DNA from: Candidatus Bathyarchaeia archaeon
Lineage (GTDB): Bacteria; Patescibacteriota; Microgenomatia; PFEM01; JAFGMK01
Direction: 5' to 3'
Length of the DNA: 64,000 bases
NCBI GenBank assembly: GCA_035529595.1
Contig: DATKWK010000017.1
Span: forward strand, 116,970-180,969
Part shown: in pieces, positions 2,498 through 61,929 of the stretch
Numbering within the stretch: position 1 is the first letter of the stretch
Layout: the number at the start of each line of letters is the position of its first letter
Translations under genes and position numbers: made by a program
The notes under the pieces: model-generated
Told to the model about the DNA's origin: nothing
The model's input: only the letters and a program-made list of their open reading frames with translations
Databases searched by the model: none

Positions 2498-2749
2498 TCA
2501 CTCTTTGCAAGCTCTTTGCCGGTGAATGATTCGGTAAATAATAATTTTCTTGCTTTTATCGAGTTCGTAAATAATTCGATAAGGCCAGGCACGAAGTGAC
2601 CAAAGACCCTTTAATTTGCCGAGTAATGGTTTACCTGAAAAAGGCTCAGATTGGAGTATTTTTAATTTTTTGATGACTTTTCTTTGTTCTGCTTTGGCAA
2701 GATGAGCGAAGTCGTTTTCAGCTTTTTCGGAAAGAATAATTGTCGGCAT
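2498..2749 (-). CDS. RelE/ParE family type II toxin
   Basis: 83 aa with a C-terminal RAWPYRIIYELDKSKKIIIYRIIHRQ pattern typical of RelE/ParE. It lies immediately downstream of an antitoxin-like gene. Confidence 0.55.
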   Translation of the reverse strand: MPTIILSEKAENDFAHLAKAEQRKVIKKLKILQSEPFSGKPLLGKLKGLWSLRAWPYRIIYELDKSKKIIIYRIIHRQRACKE

Positions 2750-2755
2750 TAGATA

Positions 2756-3022
2756 TTATAGCTGGTATTTTTTCTCAAGTTTCTTAAGAGTAATATACTT
2801 TCCTTTTCTGATTTGCCTCCTGGCTTCTTTAATGGATTTTAAAGCATCAGGAATAGAAAGAACCTCCGCAGTTTCTTCAAGAGATTCAAGTTCTTCAAGA
2901 CTCATAACTACCGCCTTGGGCTTTCCGGAAACGGCAACCACAAACCTTTTTAGTTTCTTTTCTACCTGGCTAATAAAGGTTGGTAAATTGGATCTGAAAT
3001 TAGATATTGCCACTGTTTCCAT
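2756..3022 (-). CDS. Phd/YefM family antitoxin
   Basis: METVAISNFRSNLPTFISQVEKK...VVMSLEELESLEETAEVL is the canonical Phd/YefM N-terminus. The track ORF runs to 3058; the internal Met at 3022 is the more likely start. Confidence 0.5.
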   Translation of the reverse strand: METVAISNFRSNLPTFISQVEKKLKRFVVAVSGKPKAVVMSLEELESLEETAEVLSIPDALKSIKEARRQIRKGKYITLKKLEKKYQL

Positions 3023-3188
3023 TGTCTGTAATGTACGATATTTTGTACAAATTGTCAAGGATTAAATTCTTTACGGACCAAACTTTTGGTTGAAAATATA
3101 AAATACCGCTGTACCGTACCTGTTCCACATTAGGGGTGGAACTTTATTGTCAGTAAAGTAAATTTGACAAAAGCCGTTTTGTATTGTA

Positions 3189-3509
3189 TTGTCATTTACA
3201 ATGAAAGACGCCGCTAAACCTAAACCGGTTAAATTTGATTGGAATGAAGGCAATAAAGAAAAAAATTGGCACAAACACCGGGTTGATTTTCGGGAATGCG
3301 AACAGGTTTTTTTTAATCAGCCGTTAAAAATTTTTTATGATAAAAAGCACTCGCAAAAAGAACCAAGATTTGTCGCTTTCGGGAAAACCGATAAAAACAG
3401 AAAACTGATGATAGTTTTTACTCTCAGAGTAAACAGAATTAGAATTATTTCGGCCAGAAACCAAAGCCGAAAAGAAGGGAAAATCTATGAGCAAAAGCAA
3501 AAAAATTAA
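3189..3509 (+). CDS. brnT: BrnT family (DUF497) ribonuclease toxin
   Basis: FDWNEGNKEKNWHKHRVDFRECEQVF matches the BrnT FEWDxxKxxxNxxKHGVSFEEA signature. It overlaps the downstream antitoxin ORF. Confidence 0.55.
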   Translation: MSFTMKDAAKPKPVKFDWNEGNKEKNWHKHRVDFRECEQVFFNQPLKIFYDKKHSQKEPRFVAFGKTDKNRKLMIVFTLRVNRIRIISARNQSRKEGKIYEQKQKN

Positions 3510-3765
3510 ATCAATTCCCAGATTTGAGAACGAAGATCAGGAAAGGGAATTTTGGGCGAAACATGACGTCACCGATTATCTTGATCAATTCGAACCGATA
3601 GAGTTTGATTTATCGGAATTAAAACCTTCAACGAAGTCGGTAACCATCAGATTGCCTGAGTCTCTTTTGGCCGCCTTAAAAAGTCTAGCTCACCGGAAAG
3701 ATATTCCTTACCAGTCGTTAATGAAGGTTTTTCTGGCAGAAAGAGTTAAGCAAGAATTCCGCTAA
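3487..3765 (+). CDS. brnA: BrnA antitoxin (RHH/CopG-like)
   Basis: A 92-aa protein overlapping brnT by 23 nt. The C-terminal TIRLPESLLAALKSLAHRKDIPYQSLMKVFL is BrnA-like. Confidence 0.5.
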   Translation: MSKSKKIKSIPRFENEDQEREFWAKHDVTDYLDQFEPIEFDLSELKPSTKSVTIRLPESLLAALKSLAHRKDIPYQSLMKVFLAERVKQEFR

Positions 3766-3801
3766 AACAACACCCATCACGAATTAATCTTCAGCCGTAG
3801 C
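3764..3801. repeat. 38-bp direct repeat, copy 1 (aaaacaacacccatcacgaattaatcttcagccgtagc)
   Basis: It starts inside the brnA stop codon. A second copy at 4670..4707 is identical except for a tc/ct dinucleotide swap. Confidence 0.8.
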
Positions 3802-4015
3802 CAGAAATCCATTCCTTTTCTGAAAAAAGACTTGGTAAGTTGACTTGTTTTTTTATCTGAAAGAAAGATTAGATGTCAACCTTTCAAGAAATAATAAATA
3901 CCGGCGTGTCGTATTTGTTCCACATCGGGACGGAAATTGTCTGAGAGTTCTATTTACTTGATCGGGTAATTGTGATTTGAAAAAACTTTGCTATAATAAG
4001 CATCAAGGAGAAAAG

Positions 4016-4255
4016 ATGAATAAACGGATCGAAATCAACCCCCAAGTTTTAGTCGGAAAGCCGGTTATTAAAGGAACCAGAATTCCGGTCTATCTGATTT
4101 TAAATCTTTTAGCTCATGGCTACGACTTCAAACGGATTATCAAGGCCTATCCGATTTTGACCAAGGCCGATATTCGGGCGGCGCTTGAATACAGCGAAAA
4201 GAGACTTAAAAGAGAAAAGGTTTTCCCTTTAAGTTTTAAACCAGTTTCAGGATGA
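4016..4255 (+). CDS. DUF433-family protein (antitoxin-like partner of DUF5615)
   Basis: [30 protein letters not shown] is typical of DUF433. A strong AAGGAG ribosome-binding site precedes the ATG at 4016. Its stop overlaps the next start (ATGA). Confidence 0.5.
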
Positions 4256-4617
4256 TCAAATTTCTTCTTGATGCCAATCTCTCTGTTGAAACAGCCCAAT
4301 TTTTAAGAGACCGGAAATTCAATGTTAAAAGTCTTCTGGAAGAGAATTTAGGCCAAATTTCTGATCAGGAAGTAGCTAAGATTGCTTGTAAAGAAGGTCG
4401 AATTATTATTACTCACGATCTTGATTTTGGGGAAATTTACCACTTCAAGGAAGAAGAAAAGCTAGGTATTTTAATCCTCAGGCTGAAAGACCAAACAGTT
4501 GAAGCCGTTAATAAAATCTTAGGTGAATTTCTTAAAAATAAGATAATTCAAAAACAAAAACTTGATCACTCTTTGATAATTCTTGCTGAAAATTCATATC
4601 GAACCTACAAGTCCTGA
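4252..4617 (+). CDS. DUF5615 / Mut7-C-like PIN-fold putative RNase toxin
   Basis: [11 protein letters not shown]...[11 protein letters not shown] pattern. Translationally coupled to the DUF433 gene. Confidence 0.45.
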
Positions 4618-4669
4618 TAGTAGTATCGCTTTCAGCCTCAATACCGGAGCGGAAGAGACTTAAAAAAAT

Positions 4670-4707
4670 AAAACAACACCCATCACGAATTAATCTCTAG
4701 CCGTAGC
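4670..4707. repeat. 38-bp direct repeat, copy 2
   Basis: Matches 3764..3801. An inverted pair ccggagcgg (4644-4652) / ccgctccgg (4719-4727) flanks it. Confidence 0.8.
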
Positions 4708-4801
4708 TATAAATTAACCCGCTCCGGGTGTTGAGTCTTGTATCCCCTCAGGGTAATTCCTGCCGCAGTTGGCAAGTTTTACCCGTCGGGGAGAAGGTCA
4801 G

Positions 4802-5722
4802 TTAGGGTGGGCAGGGACACCAGTCAGGAAAACTGGTGCCGTAGGTGTCTTCCAGTTCCACGCTGGCCAGATCGGCTTGGGTTGGGCTCGATGCGGTGTG
4901 GAAGAACAGCACTGGCGCCCAGGCCTGGGGGTCGACCACCGTCCAGTGGACATGGAAGTCCACAGCGTCTGCCGGCCTCACGTCCCGGTACCACCCAGAC
5001 ATCATTTGATACTGGAATGGTTGGGATCCGTGAGGGACTTCATCTATCCGTGCCCCTTCCCCGGCTGCGAACCAGACCCTCGTCCAGAGACCGCTCCAGG
5101 GGCCCTCTTCCATTCGAACCGTCAACTTGCCGCCGGTTTCGGAGCCAGACAGCTCTAGATAGTTGGCATTGTCCTGCCAGAAGACCCTCCAGACTAATGT
5201 GTCGCTCCAAGCGGAGGGCGGACCGTCGTCCCACTCACCACGGACCCGAAACCAGAAAGTGCCGAACGGTCGGATTAGGTCGACCCAGTTGTGTCCAACG
5301 AACTGGATTTCCTGCCACGTCTGGCCCTCATCCACCGACTCCTGGAGGCGGAAGTAGTCGAAGATCTCCTCAGTGCTAGGGTCGTAGTACTGCCAGAAAA
5401 GGGATACTTCAGTGGAGCCATTGACATCGTTCCACCACTCCGGCCGCCAGGGGAAGTTCTTTCCCATGAGGGGGAAATAGAGAGTGGTGACTGGCGTAAA
5501 GGTGATAGGCGCGGTGGCGATGGCCACGGGTGTCTCTGATTCGGGCTCCTCTTTGGGACGGACGATCCAGCCTCGCTCAGGATTAACCGCTTCCCATCCT
5601 TCGGGAACGGATGGCGGAGTCGGTTCTTGAGCCGAGGCGTGGGTGCCGCAGAACGCGATGATCACCAGCCCCAGCGGGATGGCGATCGCGGCAACGATGT
5701 TGAGCCATTTTTTCTTGTTCAT
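4802..5722 (-). CDS. secreted Trp-rich FN3-like protein encoded on a GC-rich (foreign-composition) segment
   Basis: The segment ~4740-5720 is visibly GC-rich (~60%) against ~40% flanks. The product MNKKKWLNIVAAIAIPLGLVIIAFCGTHASA looks like a signal peptide, followed by an FN3-like W..Y..YRL/FRV pattern. The start is taken at the Met with the signal peptide. Confidence 0.4.
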   Translation of the reverse strand: MNKKKWLNIVAAIAIPLGLVIIAFCGTHASAQEPTPPSVPEGWEAVNPERGWIVRPKEEPESETPVAIATAPITFTPVTTLYFPLMGKNFPWRPEWWNDVNGSTEVSLFWQYYDPSTEEIFDYFRLQESVDEGQTWQEIQFVGHNWVDLIRPFGTFWFRVRGEWDDGPPSAWSDTLVWRVFWQDNANYLELSGSETGGKLTVRMEEGPWSGLWTRVWFAAGEGARIDEVPHGSQPFQYQMMSGWYRDVRPADAVDFHVHWTVVDPQAWAPVLFFHTASSPTQADLASVELEDTYGTSFPDWCPCPP

Positions 5723-6313
5723 GTGTCTCTCCTGAAGTGGGTTATGTGGCTGACGCTTTCCGGCCAAGCGATTCCTCTTGGAGAATGGGTGACTAGTCCT
5801 TTCCTGATCTTTCCTAAGGATCAAGAAAACGAAATCTCCAAGCTGCCGGAAGCAGAAAGGGTAATATTTAATTAAAAGCCAAAACTGCGACTCACCTCGG
5901 AGGAGCCAAGGTCGTTGCCTTGTCACCGTCCGAGGTGTTTGGGCGCTTTCTTAAAAAGTGCAAAGTTGGAAATTACTCCCTCTGTTTCCGGTAGCTTCAA
6001 AGATTTTTCTCCAAGAAACCCTAGTTAACTGACCATGTCAAAGTGCTTCTTGCCGAAAAGAGCCCTTTTCCGGCTGCTTTAATAGCCGGTCAAGATGATC
6101 TTAACCGCAAGGAAAGAGGGAAATGATTATTCTGTCTTTCCTTATGGTTAAGGCAATCAAAAACAAACCCGGTTTTAGAGGTTTATCTTTTGATCTCTAA
6201 AACAGCCTTATTATAGTTCAAACAAAGCCAAATTACAAGTACTATAGGGTTTTTGAAAACAGCTTTACAATTTATGATATGATATTCTCTAGAATAGAAA
6301 TTCATTTTTTGCT

Positions 6314-6580
6314 ATGGATCAAAAAATAAAACCTGAGAAACCATCCATCAAAGTCGCTGTTCCTGACGTCTTTAAAGCCGGTGTTCATTCCAACGTAGTT
6401 TCCGTGACCTCCACCAGTGATAATGAGGTTATTTTCGATTTTATATTTTCCAATCCCCAAGAAAAGGAAAACGAGATGCGGGTTGGGGTTTTGGTTTCAA
6501 GAGTAGTTTTGCCGACGTCTGTCGCCAATCGTTTATTATCAATTCTTAAAAAACATTTAAAAAAATCTCAAGTTGAGTAA
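6314..6580 (+). CDS. DUF3467-like small protein
   Basis: Resembles the ORF at 17561 (EVIFDF...RVVLP vs LVFDF...RIGMS pattern). The family assignment is from memory. Confidence 0.35.
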   Translation: MDQKIKPEKPSIKVAVPDVFKAGVHSNVVSVTSTSDNEVIFDFIFSNPQEKENEMRVGVLVSRVVLPTSVANRLLSILKKHLKKSQVE

Positions 6581-6585
6581 TATTT

Positions 6586-6813
6586 ATGACCGCTGTTTCT
6601 TATTTCAACATCCAACTTCCAAATTTAAAATTTCATGATCAAACAAGCGATTTTGGTTTAATTATTCAATCAGGTTTTACGCCACCCCAGAAAGAAACCA
6701 AAGATTTATTCGCTCTTATTGAGCATTTAGATATTATTCAAGAATCCCGTGAGTTGATAAAAAAAGGTCAATTTATCACCTGGAAAGATTTTGTTAAAAA
6801 GAATGAGTCTTAA
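6586..6813 (+). CDS. putative antitoxin of a ParE/RelE-type module
   Basis: A 75-aa ORF overlapping the downstream toxin-like gene by 23 nt. No family motif was recognised. Confidence 0.3.
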   Translation: MTAVSYFNIQLPNLKFHDQTSDFGLIIQSGFTPPQKETKDLFALIEHLDIIQESRELIKKGQFITWKDFVKKNES

Positions 6814-7105
6814 AAATGAAGAAAAAACCTATCGAATTATTCTTCCCAGTAAAGGTCGAGGTTTAAAGGAGATAAAAAGGCTTTATAAAAGAAGAGAGAG
6901 ACAAGTAGAAAAGGCGATTAAAAAACTTCAAAAGTTTCCCACAAACATTAGCCAAAAAGGAATTGAAAAACTGAAAAACCCCATTTTTGGCCAATATTCA
7001 ATTCGAGTCGCTGCTGGTGATAGGATATTTTATGATGTTAATAGTCAAACCGGAGAAGTTTATATTTTACGGGCAGGCAAGCACGATATTTACAAGCGAT
7101 TATAG
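6791..7105 (+). CDS. ParE/RelE family toxin
   Basis: KTYRIIL...IKRLYKRRERQVEKAIKKL...NPIFG...YSIRVAAGDRIFYDVNSQTGEVYILRAGKHDIYK matches the ParE/RelE fold pattern. Confidence 0.5.
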   Translation: MLKRMSLKNEEKTYRIILPSKGRGLKEIKRLYKRRERQVEKAIKKLQKFPTNISQKGIEKLKNPIFGQYSIRVAAGDRIFYDVNSQTGEVYILRAGKHDIYKRL

Positions 7106-7717
7106 ATTGATCCTCAAAAGATCGGTGTAAATCGGGCCTTGGGGAGTCAGTTGGCTTTTAATCAAAGCGACTTGGTTGATTTGAAACGACCATTTTCCCG
7201 GCAGTTGGAACTGGCTTAAAAACCGGCCGAACTCCTTTTTTTGCCCTGGCTTTATTTTTCGCAAACGGGCGATAGTTAGATGCGGGATAAAGGGTTTTGA
7301 ATCAAAAGGAATTTTTTCCTGATTAAGTTTTTCTCTTATTTGGCTATTGATCAGATTTATTTTTTCAATTTCTCCGGTCAAGCCGATCCAAATGATTTTG
7401 GGGAAATCCGGGTTGGGAAAGGCGCCTAACGGGGTTAGTTTAAGTTCAATTGAACTATTCACCTCAGAGGAGTCATGGTTTCTCCGCCGACTGGCGGATT
7501 CAGCCTGACACCTACGAGGTGTTAGGGTATTTTTCATAAGCTTGGCAGTTAGCTCCGCTTGTTCAGGGCTGATATCGGCAAAAAAAATCAGGGTCAAATG
7601 CAGATTTTGTCTTTTAACCCAGGTTGCCTTTACTCCTTTCTGCCGGAGCTGATTCTGGATTTTCTCGAGCCGGTCTTTAATTTTTTCCGGGATTTCTAAA
7701 GCAATAAAAGCTCTCAT
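7100..7717 (-). CDS. thpR: RNA 2',3'-cyclic phosphodiesterase (2H phosphoesterase, ThpR/LigT)
   Basis: Two H-x-T-x motifs (HLTLIFF and HLTIARL). A ~25-aa GC-rich insertion lies between the two halves. Confidence 0.6.
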   Translation of the reverse strand: MRAFIALEIPEKIKDRLEKIQNQLRQKGVKATWVKRQNLHLTLIFFADISPEQAELTAKLMKNTLTPRRCQAESASRRRNHDSSEVNSSIELKLTPLGAFPNPDFPKIIWIGLTGEIEKINLINSQIREKLNQEKIPFDSKPFIPHLTIARLRKIKPGQKKEFGRFLSQFQLPGKWSFQINQVALIKSQLTPQGPIYTDLLRINL

Positions 7718-7835
7718 GACAGCTAAACTTAAATTTCAAAGATAAAAACTCAAAACCACAACTCAAAACCGAAAATTTTTTAAAGTTTATAAAATTTTAG
7801 ATGTGGATTTAACATTTGCGTTTTGATTTTTTAGA

Positions 7836-9602
7836 TTAGTCCGGCTTAGTGCCTACCAGGTAGATTGCCTGCCAGGGCCGGTAGTTTGAATAGAAAGTCC
7901 TTTCCTGCAAAACCTGGCCGTCTCGGGTGACTTTCCAATCAAAAGCCGCTTTTGCCCCCCAGGCCGGCCAATCGATTTGTTTGGTCGTGCCGACTGGCAG
8001 ATTGGGATCATCCTGATAAAGAGCCGGCGGCGGAGAGGTTTGCCCCCAGATTCTGGTTTTACCTATTTCTGCCTTTCGACCATCCGGCGTTCCGTAAAGC
8101 TCAAAAGTCAATTTCTGAGCCTTTAGGTCAACTTTGGTTTGGACAAGAAGATGAGTTGGCAGATCGTTTTCAAATACGAGGTTCGCAGTCGGATCATAGA
8201 CAGTGGCATCCAAGCCGACTTGCGAGTTTTGTTCATAATAGGAAACCCGATAAGCATGGGCATGGCGTTCAATAATCGGCAGGCCGGCATTTAGAGCCGC
8301 CCGGAAAAGGGTGGTAGATACTTGGCAAACACCGCCGCCGTCTCCCAGAACTGTTCTGCCTGATCTGATAATGTAGGCCTTTTGGTAACCGGTTGTTTCG
8401 GAAACCTCGCCTAATGATTGGTTAAAAGAAAAAGCTTCTTGAGGCTTAATAAGAATTCCGTTTAAGCGCGATGAGGCCAACTTGATATTATGGATTCGGG
8501 AGGCAATAGAGCCTTTAAACCAAGATTCACCCCTACCGATCATTTCTCTTATTCCCAGATTATTGGCATCAGCGGTGGTAATCATCGGTTCAGTAGAGAC
8601 TACCGGTAAAGTTAAAGTTTGATCTCCGGCTAATTCATTTAAAGAGTTAACAATCATTTCTACCGTTGCCAACTGATTAAGCCTTTGGCCGTTTTTGGCC
8701 GGCCGGAATTCAACCACCCGGCCGTTTTCAAACTGAAAAGCGGCATCTTCCGGAGTCTGGTCAATCGAAGCCGCCAATTGCCCGACGTATTCAGAAATTT
8801 TAAACCGGTCGAAGCCGTTACTGGAAAAGAGGAAATTTACCAATTCTTCTTCTTCAAGACTCCAGCTTTTATTTTCCCAGACCAAAGTCAGTCTTTCCCC
8901 CAATAATTTTTCGGCTTGCTTAGTGATTCTGGTCACCTCTTCTTCAATCAAAGAAGGTGAAATAGTCAATAGGGGAAGACTGACGGGATTAGCATCAAGC
9001 TTTTCTAACTTTTCCATTAAGAGAGAAAATAGAAGACGCGTATTTAGCTGTTTTCCCGGTTCTCCCGGGTGAATGACAATGCGGGAGGTTTGACTGGCTT
9101 CTTTAACGACTTCGATGGAAGGCTCAACTGCCGGTATATAGAGTTCGGCTGCCAGACTGGCAACCTTTTCGTCCAAATAATCTTTATCAAAACTATATTC
9201 TAGCTGAAGGTTAATCCCATTTTTTGCTGCTGCTATTTTTTGCCGGGTATTCTGCCAAATATTGCCGGTCCGGCCAAATAGGTAAGCTTTTTTTATACTT
9301 TCATCGGTTTGATATTCCAGTTTTAAGTCATTCCAACCGATTGTCCAGGATTGTTGATCGGCAGTCAGAAGGAGGCCCTTATGCTTGTTGCGGAGGGCTT
9401 TTATAAGCGTCTCAATTATTTTGTTTGCTTCTTGCCGACTTAAATTACCGATTGGTTGGCCAATCAGCGTAATGCCCGGATATATTTTTCCTTGATAAAT
9501 CAGTTGGTAAGAGGCAAAAACAATCAGCGCTAAGACTAGAACTACGGCCGGAAAAAAAAGAGAATATCGCCAATAACTTTTAAGCTTCTTTTTCATTCTC
9601 AT
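7836..9602 (-). CDS. VanW domain-containing membrane-anchored protein
   Basis: N-terminal transmembrane segment. The C-terminal GGGVCQVSTTLFRAALNAGLPIIERHAHAYRVSYY is the VanW core. Confidence 0.6.
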   Translation of the reverse strand: MRMKKKLKSYWRYSLFFPAVVLVLALIVFASYQLIYQGKIYPGITLIGQPIGNLSRQEANKIIETLIKALRNKHKGLLLTADQQSWTIGWNDLKLEYQTDESIKKAYLFGRTGNIWQNTRQKIAAAKNGINLQLEYSFDKDYLDEKVASLAAELYIPAVEPSIEVVKEASQTSRIVIHPGEPGKQLNTRLLFSLLMEKLEKLDANPVSLPLLTISPSLIEEEVTRITKQAEKLLGERLTLVWENKSWSLEEEELVNFLFSSNGFDRFKISEYVGQLAASIDQTPEDAAFQFENGRVVEFRPAKNGQRLNQLATVEMIVNSLNELAGDQTLTLPVVSTEPMITTADANNLGIREMIGRGESWFKGSIASRIHNIKLASSRLNGILIKPQEAFSFNQSLGEVSETTGYQKAYIIRSGRTVLGDGGGVCQVSTTLFRAALNAGLPIIERHAHAYRVSYYEQNSQVGLDATVYDPTANLVFENDLPTHLLVQTKVDLKAQKLTFELYGTPDGRKAEIGKTRIWGQTSPPPALYQDDPNLPVGTTKQIDWPAWGAKAAFDWKVTRDGQVLQERTFYSNYRPWQAIYLVGTKPD

Positions 9603-9699: not shown

Positions 9700-11901
9700 A
9701 TGGCTGCCCAAGATAATCAGAACAAGCAGGATATTTTTTCGCAGGCAGCGGGTAGTACACAACCTGCTTCCGGAAAAGAGCCGAATTCTTCCCCTGCCGG
9801 CGGGTCGCGGTCATCTCAACCGCTGCCGTCTCCACCTTCAGATAAGCCGGCCCTAACGGTTGAGGAGCTATATGCTCCTTCGGGAACAAAACCGGTTTCT
9901 TCAAAACCCATGGTGTCGGTTTTTGCTCCTCCAAAACTGGCAGCCGTGTCTGCCGGCAATCTTTCTGCCGCTGGTTCCCAGTCGCTGGTGGCTGCGGCAG
10001 CAAAACCAAAGTCTCTGTCTGCCGATTTTTCAGATTCTAAACCGGTTTCAGTGACCGGTAAGCCGGCACCCAGTTTGAGCACTGCGGCTGTTATTGCTTC
10101 AAAGGCAGCGGAAGATTCCAGGCCCGGCCCGGTCAATCCGGCCCAAAGGCCTAAAGTGCCAACGCCGTCCTCAACAAAGATACCGGTCGGAAAACCTTTC
10201 CAGCCTGTACCGCCAAAGCCTGAACCTGCTTTCAAGGTAGAAGAACTTTATGCGCCGTCAGAACCAAAAAAAGACGTATTAAAACCAGCGCCGTTTTCGA
10301 TTCCGGCGGCTCCGGCAAAACTTCAATCGGTGCCGGTGCCGGCGCCGGAAAGAAAAGACGCAATTTTCTCTGGCGTAAAATCAACTGAAGAAGAAAAGGC
10401 TAAGATTGAGTTTCCGGTAAGAGAGACTTTTTCTGTTCCTTCCGTGAAAGAAGTAACCGGGCAAAGACAGATGAATCCTCCGCCTGTTCCTCCTGGTGCA
10501 GTTAGGCCGGAACTACCGGTCCCTGCTGTCGTTCCAGTACCAAAGCCAGTCGGCGGCTTATCATCCGAAAAACCCCCCCTGATTCCTTCCCAACCCAAGA
10601 AATTACCGACGGCTAATATCTTCAAGGTTTTACTTATTTTTTTGGCGGTGGTAATTTTAGCCGGCGGCGGTTACTTGATATTCAAAACCTTCGGTAAGAA
10701 AAAGCCGGATGGAGAGGAAACTTTAGTTTACTGGGGATTATGGGAAGACGTCGATATTCTCGAGACAGTAACCAAGGATTGGGAAAAAGATCATCCGCAG
10801 GTAAAAATTAATTATCTCCGCCAGGCTAAAGAAGAATATCGTGAACGACTGCAGTCGGCTTTAGCCAGAAATGAGGGGCCGGATATCTTCCGTTTTCACA
10901 ATACCTGGCTACCGATGTTGAAAGATGAATTGTCACCGATGCCCGCCAACATTATGACTACGGCTCAATTCGAAGAAACTTTTTACCCGGTAGCTGTTTC
11001 TGATTTAAAAATTGGCACCTCGATCTATGGCGTTCCTTTAGAGATTGATACCTTAGCTTTGTTTTATAATGAAGATATTTTCAGAGCGGCCGGTAAAAAT
11101 CCGCCTACTAATTGGGATGAATTGCGAAGGTTGGCGTCCGAACTGACCGTCCGGGATTCCGGCGGACAGGTACAAATTGCCGGTGCAGCCATGGGAGTAA
11201 CCAGCAATATTGACCACTGGTCGGATATTCTTGGCTTGATGATGCTTCAAAACGGCGTTGATCTGGCCAAACCGCGGGGGAAGCTAGCTGAAGATGCGTT
11301 ACTTTTTTATAGTTACATTAATAAAAGAGATCGAGTATGGAATACTAACTTGCCTAATTCAACCTTGGCTTTTGCCAGCGGTAAAGTGGCAATGTACTTC
11401 GGCTTTTCTTGGGATATATTTGAAATCGAGCGAGTTAACAAGGAGCTGAAATATAAGATTGTCCCCGTACCCCAGCTTCCGGAAAGAGAGCCGGTTGCTT
11501 GGGCTTCCTATTGGGTGGAAGGAGTTTCCCGGAGGAGTAAAAAACAAGAACAAGCTTGGGAATTTTTAAAATATCTATCGAGCGAGGAGACAATGATTAA
11601 ACTTTACAAAGCTCAATCTGATCGTCGTCTTTTCGGGGAACCGTATTCACGAAAGAACTTATCTTCCCAATTAAGTAACGATCCCTTAGTCGGTCCTTTT
11701 ATTAATCAGGCGATTTTTGCCAAAAGTTGGTATCTCTGTTCACGAACCTTTGATAACGGCATTAATGAAATGATAATTAAGTATTTTGAAGATGCGGTTA
11801 ATACTACTGGCGACACCGGGACTTCGGCCGGCGATACCCTTCAAACCGTTGCTAAGGGTGTGAGTCAAGTTTTGTCTCGTTACCGCGTCTCCGCCCAGTA
11901 A
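9700..11901 (+). CDS. ABC transporter substrate-binding protein (family 1) with a ~310-aa Pro/Ala/Ser-rich N-terminal extension
   Basis: A disordered N-terminus with two VEELYAPS repeats, one transmembrane helix (LLIFLAVVILAGGGYLIF), then a MalE-like binding fold (YWGLWEDVD...DIFRFHNTW). Confidence 0.55.
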   Translation: MAAQDNQNKQDIFSQAAGSTQPASGKEPNSSPAGGSRSSQPLPSPPSDKPALTVEELYAPSGTKPVSSKPMVSVFAPPKLAAVSAGNLSAAGSQSLVAAAAKPKSLSADFSDSKPVSVTGKPAPSLSTAAVIASKAAEDSRPGPVNPAQRPKVPTPSSTKIPVGKPFQPVPPKPEPAFKVEELYAPSEPKKDVLKPAPFSIPAAPAKLQSVPVPAPERKDAIFSGVKSTEEEKAKIEFPVRETFSVPSVKEVTGQRQMNPPPVPPGAVRPELPVPAVVPVPKPVGGLSSEKPPLIPSQPKKLPTANIFKVLLIFLAVVILAGGGYLIFKTFGKKKPDGEETLVYWGLWEDVDILETVTKDWEKDHPQVKINYLRQAKEEYRERLQSALARNEGPDIFRFHNTWLPMLKDELSPMPANIMTTAQFEETFYPVAVSDLKIGTSIYGVPLEIDTLALFYNEDIFRAAGKNPPTNWDELRRLASELTVRDSGGQVQIAGAAMGVTSNIDHWSDILGLMMLQNGVDLAKPRGKLAEDALLFYSYINKRDRVWNTNLPNSTLAFASGKVAMYFGFSWDIFEIERVNKELKYKIVPVPQLPEREPVAWASYWVEGVSRRSKKQEQAWEFLKYLSSEETMIKLYKAQSDRRLFGEPYSRKNLSSQLSNDPLVGPFINQAIFAKSWYLCSRTFDNGINEMIIKYFEDAVNTTGDTGTSAGDTLQTVAKGVSQVLSRYRVSAQ

Positions 11902-58589: not shown

Positions 58590-59201
58590 TTAAATAGGGA
58601 GGAGTAATCCGAACAGAAGGATGAAAAGACCGGCGACGATAAAAACGCTGGTTTCAATTGCGCCCCCAGCCTTGGGTAGTTCGCTGATTGACGTCGGTGT
58701 TGGACTCAAGGTAGGTTTTGGAGTTGAAGTCGGCCCCGGAGTTGGAGTCGGTGTTGACGACGGTTGTCCGGTTGGGGTTGGAGTCTGGGTACTGGTGGGT
58801 GTCGGAGTAGGACTCGGGCAAACACAATCTTCCTCTCTTGGGCAGTCCGAGCTAACGCAGCGTTTTGAAGTATCGTTGGCGCTCGGTTTCTGACAGACTA
58901 GAGTATCCGGGCAATCAGAATCACTATCACAGGTATCCCAGCATTCGGGTATTGGCGTCGGAGTTGGAGTCGGTGTTTGAGAAACTGGCGGCGTCGGAGT
59001 TGGAGTCGGTGTTGGTGTCGGGATATCAAATTCTAAAATACATTCAGGAGCTACCGCCCCCGGTTGACTTTCCGGTTGTGTGGGCGCTACCGGCCTTTTT
59101 CCTACTTGGTAAAGTTTCCAGGCAGTAACAACAGCAGCAACTCCCAAAACTAAAGTCAGACAAATAAGTGCCGCTAGATACCAATTTTTCTTTAGATTCA
59201 T
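58590..59201 (-). CDS. secreted Pro/Thr-repeat protein with a Cys-rich module and a C-terminal LPKAG + hydrophobic tail
   Basis: Signal anchor, PTPTPTPTP linkers, a cluster of about 10 Cys, and a terminal ELPKAGG followed by a hydrophobic stretch. Confidence 0.4.
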   Translation of the reverse strand: MNLKKNWYLAALICLTLVLGVAAVVTAWKLYQVGKRPVAPTQPESQPGAVAPECILEFDIPTPTPTPTPTPPVSQTPTPTPTPIPECWDTCDSDSDCPDTLVCQKPSANDTSKRCVSSDCPREEDCVCPSPTPTPTSTQTPTPTGQPSSTPTPTPGPTSTPKPTLSPTPTSISELPKAGGAIETSVFIVAGLFILLFGLLLPI

Positions 59202-59210
59202 ATATTTATC

Positions 59211-60524
59211 CTAGAGCCAGCCTAATGATGAATGATGGACTTCGGCTTCCACTCGGAAATGATAAGTTGCCGTCGGAATCGTGTAACTAATATAATAAAT
59301 GGTCTCGTTGCCGATTGTTCTCTGTTCAGCCGTCGTTAGCCATTCACCACCATTGATCCTGAACCGGGCACCATCGATATTTCCCTGGCTAAAAGAGGCG
59401 CTAACGCCAAAATAAATTATCTCTCCAGCTTGAAGGGAAGAATAATTGGTGATTGCTTCCCATTCCTCGTTATAGGCATGGATCCAATCACAACTGGCCG
59501 AGGGAGTCGGAGTCGGGGTCGGTGTCGGGACCCCAGTTGGGGTAGGAGTTGGAGTAATGGTTGCAGTTTCGCCACACCACTCTACTTTGACAATTGCTAG
59601 ATGAGAACCCGGAGAACTAGTGTCTCCGGTAAAATTAACAGTTACTGATAATTCGTTTTCGGTAAAGGATCCATGAACAGAGCCGCAACAAAATGTCTGG
59701 CCTTCCAGTTCTTCGTTTCCAAAATCGGGACAATTGACAGTACCTAAAGGCGTCACTAATTCGTGGACTTCATTGCTCTGAAATTGGTTTGGGTCGCCGC
59801 TCCACTGCCAAGAATTGTGGATAACAACATGGGTAGCATTTTCTGGCCTGGTAAAGGTATGCTGGAAAGATGGTTTTTGCGGTTGCCAAACTTCAGTGCT
59901 CCAGGTTTCATCATCAATTAATGGCTTACCGATTATTGTTTCGCAGTCAGGACATTCCCCCTGAGCCGGAGTCGGTGTTGGTGTCGGAACCCCAGTTGGG
60001 GTAGGAGTTGGAGTCGGCACCGACGTGGGAGTCGGAGTTGTCGTCGGACAATTGAAAACTTGGTATCGTCCCGAAGCATTGGGATTACCGTTTTGATAAA
60101 CTTCCCATTCTACCCAATCTTCGCTTACCAGAGGGAAATCGTAAGAAAAATAGTCGGAATACTGACAAGTACTCTCAGTAGTAGTAAATTCTTGTTCTTG
60201 CCATTCAGTAGTGCCTTCTTTACGAACTTTCCCCAGCCACGTACCTATGTCGCAAACATATATTCTCCAGCTATAACAGTCGCCTTCATTATGGCAGGCA
60301 GCCGTTCTAATATCTTGACGTTCCCTGATAAAAAAAAGAGTAGCAACCAGGGAGCCGGCAGTGAGTCCCATTCCGAGAAAAAGTCCTAATTTCTTTAAAT
60401 TTAAGCGCCTTTTTTCATTCGGTACAATCGCCTTTGTCTCCGCCACTGGCTCACTGAGTTTGTCTGGATCCTGTGGGTTAACTTGGCTTTGATTATTCTG
60501 ATTTTCCATTCTATTTTTTAACAA
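59211..60524 (-). CDS. membrane-anchored surface protein with PT-linkers and beta-sandwich-like domains
   Basis: N-terminal transmembrane segment and two (TPTPTP)n linkers. Confidence 0.35.
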   Translation of the reverse strand: MLKNRMENQNNQSQVNPQDPDKLSEPVAETKAIVPNEKRRLNLKKLGLFLGMGLTAGSLVATLFFIRERQDIRTAACHNEGDCYSWRIYVCDIGTWLGKVRKEGTTEWQEQEFTTTESTCQYSDYFSYDFPLVSEDWVEWEVYQNGNPNASGRYQVFNCPTTTPTPTSVPTPTPTPTGVPTPTPTPAQGECPDCETIIGKPLIDDETWSTEVWQPQKPSFQHTFTRPENATHVVIHNSWQWSGDPNQFQSNEVHELVTPLGTVNCPDFGNEELEGQTFCCGSVHGSFTENELSVTVNFTGDTSSPGSHLAIVKVEWCGETATITPTPTPTGVPTPTPTPTPSASCDWIHAYNEEWEAITNYSSLQAGEIIYFGVSASFSQGNIDGARFRINGGEWLTTAEQRTIGNETIYYISYTIPTATYHFRVEAEVHHSSLGWL

Positions 60525-61929
60525 TCTCTATAAATGAACCGCAAGCAACAAGAATTAGACCCATTATGAGACTAACTAATGTTGGAGTCAAGACCCCAGG
60601 TTTTATCTCCATAGCTGAAGGAGTAGTTGTTGGAGATGGGCTAAGGGCACCAGTTGGCTTTGTGGTCGGGGCAGGCGGAGTAGCAGTTGGACTAATGCTT
60701 GGGGTTGGCATCCCTGTTGGGCTAATAGTTACTGTCGGTTCAACGGCAGCGGGAGTTGGTGTTAATGCGGGTTGGCTGGTAGGACTAGCGGACGGTGTCG
60801 CGGTAAAAGCGGGCAGGTCACTCTCATCGGCTGCCAGAACAATAAATTGATGAGAAATCTCATGTTTTTTTCCCTGATCATCAATGTAGTTTAAAGTAAT
60901 TTTATGCTCGCCCGGTTCCAAGTTATTCGTTATCGACCAATTCCAATCTCCCCATTCGTTGGGAATTGTTTTTCCGGTAAATAAGGGCGACTCAACTTGG
61001 ATGGTAATTTCTTCGCCTGCCGGGCCTTTACCCAAAAATTCCGGTTTTTGAGTAGAGACAGCTTCGCCCGGTTTTGGATTAAGAATAATTAAGGAGTATG
61101 AAGGGGTGGAAACTGGGAGGTCTTCAAGAGAAAATCCGGAATCAGAAAGGCTGTCTTCTTCCGCTGACTTCGCTACAGTCTTTTGGCGAAAATCTAAGCT
61201 TTCTCCAAGAGTAATTGGGGGTACCGGACTGTTATTGCTCGTTGTTGTCACGGCGCTGGCCGTAAGATCTTTTCCCTGAACAAAGATTTCGATTGCCGAT
61301 GCTTCGGAATCGTAGGAAACAAAACTTGAAAGATCCTCACTTCTGGCTAAATTTAAAGGAATAGCCCAGTTTCCGGAGGAGCTAACTAAGGAAGACTGCA
61401 ACGATGAATTTGCCATGTTTAAATAGACAATAGCCTCCTCAGCGGGTTGACCGTTAATGTCGAGAATTATCCCGTAAGCCAAATCATTGGCAAGTTCCGC
61501 TTGCTTAATTTCCGGGGCGGTAGTCGTCTGATATGGAATGCCATTATCATCGTATTTTTGGGAATCGCAGTAGACTTCAAAGTAATAAGTGACCGCCGGG
61601 TCAAGACCGGTAATATTAATATAATGTACGAGATAGGCTTCTTCCTTTTCTGACTCTGTATTTCTTTCGTCTGGCCATTGCTGGTCAAATGAATTAGGCG
61701 CTTTCCCTATCTTGATCCAGCCGATTGTCGGCTTGGCAGTAACCCAGGAGACAACAAATGAGTTACTGCTAATATTACTAATTTTTAGTTGATTAGGATT
61801 ATTTTCCGCTTTTGCTTTTAGGAATATATTTTGGCTTCTTTTGATAAAGAAGACGCTGATTCCCAGGCCAATCAGTATGATAATTAGGCCGATTAGAGTA
61901 GGGATTTTCTTGTTTTGTCGGGATTCCAT
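60511..61929 (-). CDS. surface protein with an FN3-like N-terminal domain, a PT/PA-rich stalk and a C-terminal transmembrane anchor
   Basis: N-terminal transmembrane segment, ISNISSNSFVVSWVT...TYYFEV (FN3), a PT-rich tail and a C-terminal hydrophobic helix. Confidence 0.4.
   Translation of the reverse strand: MESRQNKKIPTLIGLIIILIGLGISVFFIKRSQNIFLKAKAENNPNQLKISNISSNSFVVSWVTAKPTIGWIKIGKAPNSFDQQWPDERNTESEKEEAYLVHYINITGLDPAVTYYFEVYCDSQKYDDNGIPYQTTTAPEIKQAELANDLAYGIILDINGQPAEEAIVYLNMANSSLQSSLVSSSGNWAIPLNLARSEDLSSFVSYDSEASAIEIFVQGKDLTASAVTTTSNNSPVPPITLGESLDFRQKTVAKSAEEDSLSDSGFSLEDLPVSTPSYSLIILNPKPGEAVSTQKPEFLGKGPAGEEITIQVESPLFTGKTIPNEWGDWNWSITNNLEPGEHKITLNYIDDQGKKHEISHQFIVLAADESDLPAFTATPSASPTSQPALTPTPAAVEPTVTISPTGMPTPSISPTATPPAPTTKPTGALSPSPTTTPSAMEIKPGVLTPTLVSLIMGLILVACGSFIEIVKK

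Follow-up and report, generated by a model that had tools for sequence, protein, structure and literature searches.

The subject of this analysis is a GC-rich islet of about 1.1 kb that holds a single gene, here called P0001 after its product, and lies within a region rich in toxin-antitoxin (TA) modules. It is found in a 64-kb stretch of contig DATKWK010000017.1 (positions 116,970 to 180,969), which is called the window hereafter. Other genes of the window encode PBP1a, alpha-2-macroglobulin, GroES/GroEL, VanW and LigT, and the best relatives of its VanW were found in metagenome-assembled genomes (MAGs) of Paceibacterota (58% identity) and Shapirobacteria (45%). Since these genes are bacterial and resemble those in the candidate phyla radiation (CPR), and the VanW relatives lie in CPR MAGs, the organism is taken to be a CPR bacterium, and the NCBI label "Candidatus Bathyarchaeia archaeon" on the source MAG is almost certainly a binning error or a mislabel (contig of 385 kb; JGI Ga0307380_10000013; NCBI HUW21219.1 and HUW21232.1). 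The 4.6-kb TA island that hosts the islet runs in the order ParE/PhD, BrnT/BrnA, DUF433/DUF5615, the islet gene, DUF3467, and a 75-aa open reading frame (ORF) paired with a 104-aa ORF whose match to YoeB is weak (E=4.5e-3). In total, four TA pairs flank the islet gene.

The islet gene encodes a 306-aa protein identical to NCBI HUW21219.1, and its features are collected in Table 1. GC contents at the first, second and third codon positions are.586,.482 and.717, respectively, a pattern typical of a coding frame in a GC-rich genome, and the minus-strand reading frame is therefore considered genuine. This agrees with an earlier sequence-only reading of this DNA (the original prediction), which had placed one minus-strand gene here and quoted from its translation the segments WQYYDP, YFRL and FWFRVRGEWDD, all of which are present. 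It had also dismissed the ORFs of the opposite strand as artefacts; the one at 4738-5379 is richest in GC at codon position 2, which is what a shadow ORF would show, and has a translation rich in Arg, Pro, Gly and Ser. A GTG further upstream, at 5926, is an unlikely start, because the signal-like N-terminus begins exactly at the Met of 5722. No sigma-70-like promoter was found within 480 nt upstream of the gene. The minus-strand promoter-like sites closest to it, at 6238-6210 and 6270-6241, belong to AT-rich intergenic DNA of the host, and, given the distance of these candidates, the manner in which the gene is transcribed is a matter for conjecture.

Table 1. Features of the islet, its gene and its surroundings, by position in the window.
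Feature	Position	Strand	Basis and remarks
GC-rich islet (maximum-likelihood segment)	4720..5799	.	Segmentation, 980-nt window z, tetranucleotides; right edge anywhere in 5685-5955
Sole real gene of the islet; 306-aa protein, predicted exported	4802..5722	-	ATG at 5722, stop codon 4802-4804; GC by codon position; gene call in the JGI record
Signal peptide or N-terminal anchor, residues 1-31	5630..5722	-	MNKKKW, 18-residue hydrophobic core, then A-S-A|Q; by inspection
Linker motif LYFPLMGKNFPWRP, residues 80-93, ahead of the FN3 domain	5444..5485	-	Alignment with P0005, P0010, P0035, P0036 and P0041
Fibronectin type III (FN3) domain, residues ~94-177	5192..5443	-	FN3-repeat alignment, module profile, AF2 and Foldseek
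Trp-rich C-terminal domain, residues 178-306, ending DWCPCPP	4805..5191	-	Common only to P0005; alignment to residue 261
Shine-Dalgarno AGGAG	5729..5733	-	6 nt before the ATG; read from the sequence
Leader upstream of the islet gene, mixed GC (38-60% per 50 nt)	5723..5945	-	Composition, segmentation; putative extent and role
Intrinsic terminator of the islet gene (predicted)	4660..4733	-	Arms 4706-4733 and 4674-4701, then minus-strand UUUUAUUUUUUU (4673-4662)
46-nt direct repeat, copy 1	3763..3808	+	Starts at the BrnA stop codon; no complementary arm, no significant fold
46-nt direct repeat, copy 2	4669..4714	+	Source of one terminator arm and of the loop; coincides with the islet's left junction
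TA island hosting the islet	2498..7105	.	Between the alpha-2-macroglobulin gene and LigT; Pfam assignments

Downstream of the gene, the minus-strand hairpin with its UUUUAUUUUUUU tract is a predicted Rho-independent terminator for the islet gene. The region folds with -51.3 kcal/mol (z=-4.6), and 0 of 200 shuffles were equally stable. One arm comes from a 46-nt direct repeat whose two copies are 91% identical and whose 22-nt core is present twice in the window, compared with 0 expected from shuffles. The copies stand downstream of two different TA operons, and copy 2 alone is extended into the terminator hairpin. The window has no further copy, and none turned up in the viral-contig collection or the other loci retrieved; an attC- or MITE-like (miniature inverted-repeat transposable element) site was rejected for this reason. 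An integron gene cassette was likewise rejected, as there are two repeat copies only, copy 2 alone forms a hairpin and behaves as a terminator, and no integrase is present. An Rfam search of 3600-6400 gave no match. The intergenic region that separates the islet gene from the DUF3467 gene contains, at 6100-6152, a near-perfect hairpin with 23-nt arms (83% complementary) and a 7-nt loop, which has a U-tract on neither strand.

The composition changes abruptly at the islet. By using sliding windows, a GC content of 55-62% was obtained from ~4650 to ~5850, with 33-40% on both sides, and every other 1-kb bin of the window is at or below 48.4%. The interval 4740-5722 has 59.3% GC, while the mean of the whole window is 40.6%; it reaches z=5.1 against all other 980-nt windows (mean 40.4%, standard deviation 3.7%, maximum 52.2%) and is the strongest tetranucleotide outlier of the window. 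The switch to about 60% GC at ~4740-5720 described in the original prediction was thus borne out, by windowed GC as well as by the tetranucleotide profile it had proposed to compute. Two-state maximum-likelihood segmentation of 3000-8000 returned the segment given in Table 1, with 59.0% GC against 37.6% outside and a log-likelihood gain of 78.6. The islet is sharply delimited on the left (4695-4745) and diffusely on the right (5685-5955), and the leader upstream of the gene could still be foreign DNA. The islet had been said to start right after the second copy of a 38-bp repeat and an inverted pair; both elements are present, the repeat measures 46 nt, and the rise in GC begins inside and just after the inverted pair.

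Codon usage in the islet gene is foreign to the host. Its GC at third codon positions (GC3),.717, is 6.4 standard deviations above that of 42 host ORFs (mean.39, standard deviation.05, maximum.49). The relative synonymous codon usage (RSCU) of the gene correlates with that of the host at -0.23, with genes of L021 at +0.66 and +0.71, and with genes of L003 at +0.55, L021 and L003 being two loci that carry relatives of P0001. By comparison, the correlation of any host gene is 0.42 or more with the host set and 0.23 or less with the high-GC set. L021 is contig JAAEKC010000192; the accession JAAEKC000000000 stands for Clx_SAG4, a genome from a single cell of the Chloroflexi class Anaerolineae, whose GC content is 61.3% (PMC7387413, Table 1). 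With the codon usage of this locus, a GC content of 60.8% is expected for the islet gene, which lies within 1.1 points of it. The dinucleotide signature distance between islet and host is 205 (host chunks' own range: mean 70, maximum 161), and the distance from the islet to L021, L003 and L023, a third such locus, is smaller, 150.

The product itself is composed of an N-terminal hydrophobic segment, a Pro-rich linker, one FN3 domain and a C-terminal domain. Trp makes up 6.8% of P0001, compared with a mean of 1.5% and a maximum of 3.2% in the 42 host ORFs with a length of 150 aa or more, so the product is as Trp-rich as had been claimed. The signal-peptide-like N-terminus described in the original prediction was recognized again by inspection (Table 1), and residues 3-25 are modelled as a helix by AlphaFold2 (AF2). 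Export of P0001 is accordingly a prediction, and the h-region, being long, may alternatively serve as an anchor that is not cleaved.

The FN3 domain had been proposed from its strand pattern, and direct searches did not reveal it. P0001 has no match above the gathering score of Pfam fn3 (PF00041), hmmscan at E<=10 gave only a spurious HCO3_cotransp, and Pfam, NCBIfam and PDB sequence searches returned no meaningful match. With phmmer, P0001 matched the Tepidisphaeraceae protein P0002 (E=7.4e-28) over stretches that are Pfam fn3 repeats; residues ~100-177 align to each Pfam-confirmed FN3 repeat of P0002 with 32-38% identity and pairwise E-values down to 3e-9. Both proteins have the D/E-G-x-T-W and FRVRA/G motifs. 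P0002 differs in carrying at least 14 tandem FN3 copies and in being devoid of the linker motif, whereas P0001 has one FN3. A profile of six module sequences found titin (multi-domain) at 6e-20, PTP-delta at 1.7e-6, gp130 at 8e-6 and FN3con at 5.9e-5 in the PDB, and the Trp conserved in strand B (W110) and the aromatic-x-Φ-R-V pattern of the F strand (FWFRVRG) are visible in the module alignment. The AF2 model of the module has 7 strands with a predicted local distance difference test score (pLDDT) of 60-88 across the domain, which is of medium confidence only. A Foldseek search of the PDB with this model listed FN3 or FN3-type cytokine-receptor domains for all of the top 50 matches (probability 1.0, template modelling (TM) score 0.5-0.63). 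By profile and by modelled fold, then, P0001 carries one FN3 domain, as the original prediction had it. The full-length AF2 model is poor (pLDDT 43), with the C-terminal domain below 30, and this domain had no match in Pfam, NCBIfam or PDB.

The linker, abbreviated "YFPLMGKNFPWRP", has the form LYFPLMGKNFPWRP in P0001, NLPIVCRKYPCIP in P0005 and YFPIIFKRYPPIP in P0010; in P0035, P0036 and P0041 it reads YFPI[IM]MKRWPPIP, and YFPIIMKRWPPIP is also aligned among P0010, P0035, P0036 and P0041. It has low pLDDT and is modelled as disordered, and it is probably extended in shape. A segment resembling it also precedes unrelated domains in P0018 and P0044. There is no Pfam or NCBIfam model of the motif, and a literature search on it gave nothing relevant. 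In the more general form [Y/N][F/L]P[I/L][I/M/V]x[K/R]xΦPx[I/R]P, the inter-domain motif was seen in secreted proteins of the window, L003, L019, L021 and L023, ahead of FN3 or other domains; its carriers outside CPR are one confirmed Anaerolineae genome and others on high-GC contigs.

Close relatives of P0001 are scarce. HMMER searches against 1.84 billion representative proteins gave only 6 distant matches, 3 of them multi-FN3 proteins. A word-indexed homologue search returned P0001 itself only, renewed searches with profiles yielded nothing more than DUF11 proteins and one fragment, the protein names pointed to no donor taxon, and the 90% identity cluster of P0001 has it as sole member. The phage and plasmid collections gave no tblastn match, and no relative was seen in viral contigs. 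The host locus was followed through 14 loci with a VanW relative (3 from species-representative genomes and 11 from metagenomes; VanW identity 45-58% over full-length matches), and neither the islet gene nor a comparable GC peak was present in any of the 14. The peak in L015 was rejected as a counterpart, being an unrelated Ala/Glu/Pro-rich gene. At least the VanW-LigT adjacency is kept in 5 of these loci, and synteny ends after LigT. The same GC-rich gene at the same locus in many relatives, which the original prediction had named as evidence against itself, was thus looked for, and the gene is absent from 14 of 14 distant VanW loci.

Outside CPR, the relatives that share the linker and FN3 domain are all on contigs of 53-63% GC. 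L003, which holds P0004/P0010 and a neighbour with the linker motif, has 56% GC throughout. L021, in which P0036 and P0041 stand in tandem, has 62.6%, and L023, syntenic to it, has 61.7%; L022 has 53% overall and about 55-60% across its two family genes. The family genes of L021 have GC contents of.57,.51 and.73 at the three codon positions, close to the.59,.48 and.72 of the islet gene. These proteins (P0036, P0041 and P0035 of the Anaerolineae type, and also P0010) have DUF11/CLIPPER domains, the linker, FN3 and a C-terminal domain. They share with P0001 a signal-peptide-like N-terminus and a YFP[IL][IM]xK/RxΦPxxP linker placed directly before an FN3 domain with a GT(Y/F)(Y/W)(Y/F)RV strand. 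Only this linker and FN3 module aligns, with 22-38% identity. P0001 differs in its C-terminal domain, which is Trp-rich, and the 'DDFSNPxSGWY...' domain common to the others is not found in it; it also has no match to DUF11 (PF01345), whereas P0010 and P0036 do. The protein search that the original prediction had recommended as a route to the donor lineage therefore gave relatives on high-GC contigs, one of them Anaerolineae, and nothing closer than about 38% identity.

The sole near-full-length homologue, P0005, comes from CPR. It is a 334-aa hypothetical protein encoded at locus L002 of the Microgenomates MAG GCA_964354025.1, where the products of the neighbouring genes cluster at 90% identity with proteins that bear the name Candidatus Microgenomates, and it aligns with residues 53-261 of P0001 at 25% identity. 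Its gene is the GC maximum of the locus (53.3% against 44%; GC3.61; Trp 4.2%) and adjoins a YafQ TA pair. P0005 resembles P0001 in having a signal-peptide-like N-terminus, the linker motif, FN3 and the C-terminal domain, and in lying in a GC islet beside a TA pair of a low-GC CPR genome. It differs by an extra Cys-rich insertion in FN3, a weaker GC contrast (+9 points), other flanking genes and a non-orthologous locus.

The slot that holds the P0005 gene is variable. In L019 and L020, which are ~83% identical to L002 at the nucleotide level, the slot between the AdoHcy (S-adenosylhomocysteine) hydrolase gene and a 299-aa gene is filled by a non-homologous 582-aa gene, P0044 (slot at 9837-11249 in L002 and 835-3130 in L019). 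This gene has 52-60% GC against about 42%, and its product has an N-terminal hydrophobic anchor and a YLPLIAKDY segment. P0044 was rejected as a homologue of P0001 or P0005, with no likeness beyond the predicted signal peptide, and P0005 and P0044 are both Trp-rich and N-terminally anchored. L002 and L018 have the YafQ pair, which L019 and L020 lack, and L018 has no gene in the slot. GC-rich foreign genes for exported proteins thus recur at variable slots beside TA modules in CPR genomes.

The explanation that best accommodates these observations, and a probable one, is that the islet is a single gene horizontally acquired from a donor of ~60% GC, most likely Chloroflexota (Anaerolineae-like), which codes for a probably exported FN3 protein and sits in the TA island of a CPR genome of ~40% GC. 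A segment carrying one gene, with its own ribosome-binding site and Rho-independent terminator, would have entered the CPR genome and landed in the flexible, TA-rich region. Its product would be exported through the N-terminal Sec-type signal peptide or anchor and would display the FN3 beta-sandwich and the Trp-rich C-terminal domain after the linker. It would most likely act as a cell-surface binding or adhesion protein. Transfer from a high-GC Chloroflexota-like lineage to CPR would be the most economical reading of the direction. Horizontal acquisition from a high-GC donor, as stated in the original prediction, is strongly supported by a synonymous GC excess of 9.7 points, the negative RSCU correlation with the host and the 53-63% GC contigs of the non-CPR relatives. 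The prediction had also called the event recent, and here the lack of amelioration is the only indication.

In its general character, the islet resembles the alien genes of the Lawrence-Ochman type and small genomic islets. It shares with them the abrupt shift in GC and GC3, the foreign codon usage, the patchy distribution, the flexible TA-rich location and an ORFan-like surface-protein cargo. It is unlike them in being ~1.1 kb long with one gene, in having no integrase, tRNA, insertion-sequence ends or direct-repeat scars, and in having a CPR recipient.

Several points weigh against acquisition from a Chloroflexota-like donor. No donor sequence was found, the best identities being 38% for the module (P0010) and 25% near full length (P0005), so the donor phylum is suggested by composition and a distant family relationship. 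The islet lies apart from any integrase, transposase, adjacent tRNA or target-site duplication: no integrase or transposase Pfam domain was found within +/-10 kb, the sole tRNA is 13 kb away, and no flanking direct repeats or target-site duplication were found around it. For a diversity-generating retroelement, no reverse transcriptase domain was present among the precomputed Pfam hits within the same +/-10 kb, and no further search was made. All 14 VanW loci are distant (at most 58% full-length identity) and thus provide no true empty site. The dinucleotide distance of 150 between the islet and L021 is just outside the own range of L021 (maximum 145), and about half of the GC excess of the islet gene stems from amino-acid composition. 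Furthermore, the export and function of P0001 are predicted only, and both proteins with the shared C-terminal domain, P0001 and P0005, are found in CPR genomes, which could mean a CPR-resident family.

This last point leads to the rival that survives best, although it is improbable: a mobile family of exported proteins resident in CPR (P0001, P0005 and perhaps other slot genes), which would move among TA-flanked slots with its GC-richness actively maintained. P0001 and P0005, alone in sharing the C-terminal domain, are indeed both from CPR, with GC-rich genes next to TA pairs, and their 25% identity implies an old divergence. The slot of L002 and L019 holds different GC-rich genes for exported proteins, and the RSCU of the islet gene resembles that of the L019 slot gene (r=0.62). 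However, the FN3 module of P0001 is nearer to that of P0010, from a high-GC context (38%), than to that of P0005 (30%), so independent imports fit better than one ancient import, with the reservation that the alignment is short. With a GC3 of.61, the P0005 gene is less GC-rich as well, as partial amelioration or another donor would lead one to expect; a mechanism that maintains GC3 in a single gene is not known, and the sample consists of two genes.

Still less probable is a native, old gene made GC-rich by its amino-acid composition (Trp, Pro, Gly, Ala, Arg) or by mRNA selection. When P0001 was back-translated with host codon frequencies, 50.0% GC was obtained, which means that amino-acid content alone lifts the expectation from 41% to 50%. 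Other surface-protein genes of the window are mildly GC-enriched too: at 58590-60524 (minus strand), two surface proteins with long TPTPTP linkers show a rise carried by codon position 2 (.60 and.48) and not by position 3, and this rise is therefore attributed to their amino-acid content (Pro/Thr linkers). Nevertheless, the islet gene is observed at 59.7% GC, and the 9.7 points left over are synonymous. They amount to about 6.5 host standard deviations, as the departure of host genes from the values expected for them has a standard deviation of 1.5 and a maximum of 2.8 points. Its GC3 and its RSCU, anti-correlated with that of the host, point the same way, as does its absence from all related loci retrieved. 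In addition, the window has a native 472-aa protein (60511-61929, minus strand) with FN3/purple-acid-phosphatase-N and Big_13 domains and a host-like GC content of.44, so the FN3 fold by itself does not require a GC-rich gene.

An assembly chimera, with a high-GC fragment spliced into the CPR contig by the assembler, is hardly credible: the left junction does coincide with a repeated sequence, which is where graph assemblers mis-join, and the implausible Bathyarchaeia label suggests imperfect curation of the source MAG, but the exact protein is carried by 5 contigs, which come from 3 samples and from several sources (JGI, NCBI, ENA, Logan), mostly with the same neighbours, and these contigs differ between assemblies (385,069 and 385,351 nt); two mis-joins only 1.1 kb apart would have to return to the same host locus; the other copy of the 46-nt repeat is in the same host genome and not in foreign DNA; the terminator hairpin pairs the host-side repeat with islet-side sequence across the left boundary; and an unrelated CPR assembly has a homologous GC islet, at the P0005 locus. 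The chimera that the original prediction had kept as an alternative is thus set aside as unlikely, on the strength of the identical protein in several samples and of the terminator that spans the boundary.

With acquisition as the preferred reading, the islet is best treated as an ordinary alien gene, to be flagged as foreign, and not as an assembly error, before the biology of the organism is read from it. The hosts of CPR/Patescibacteria are mostly unknown, and an adhesin-like gene with Chloroflexi-type codon usage would be a testable hint to a partner organism. The same phenomenon is met again in an independent Microgenomates lineage, at a TA-flanked variable slot, which suggests that foreign surface-protein genes have a preferred place to land. 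The islet also brings to light a conserved linker motif without annotation (YFPIIxKRxPPIP), which connects domains of secreted proteins encoded on high-GC contigs. A bolder proposition, which is unlikely as it stands, is that Microgenomates-like CPR repeatedly capture Chloroflexota surface-protein genes at TA-guarded slots in order to bind that lineage, or else that the CPR-resident mobile family with maintained GC-richness exists. If the former is true, an unrecognised host association between CPR and Chloroflexi would have left its molecular footprints in the islets; if the latter, the GC-richness of the islet gene would be kept by some unknown force.

Two further observations concern other surface proteins of the window. 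The first of the two proteins at 58590-60524 ends in LPKAGG and a hydrophobic tail, a sortase-type sorting signal. At 9700-10700 (plus strand), a 733-aa solute-binding protein has a Pro/Ala/Ser-rich N-terminal extension of ~320 aa, with ~55% GC, which ends in a transmembrane segment, and the tblastn matches of its relatives start only at residue ~258-336.

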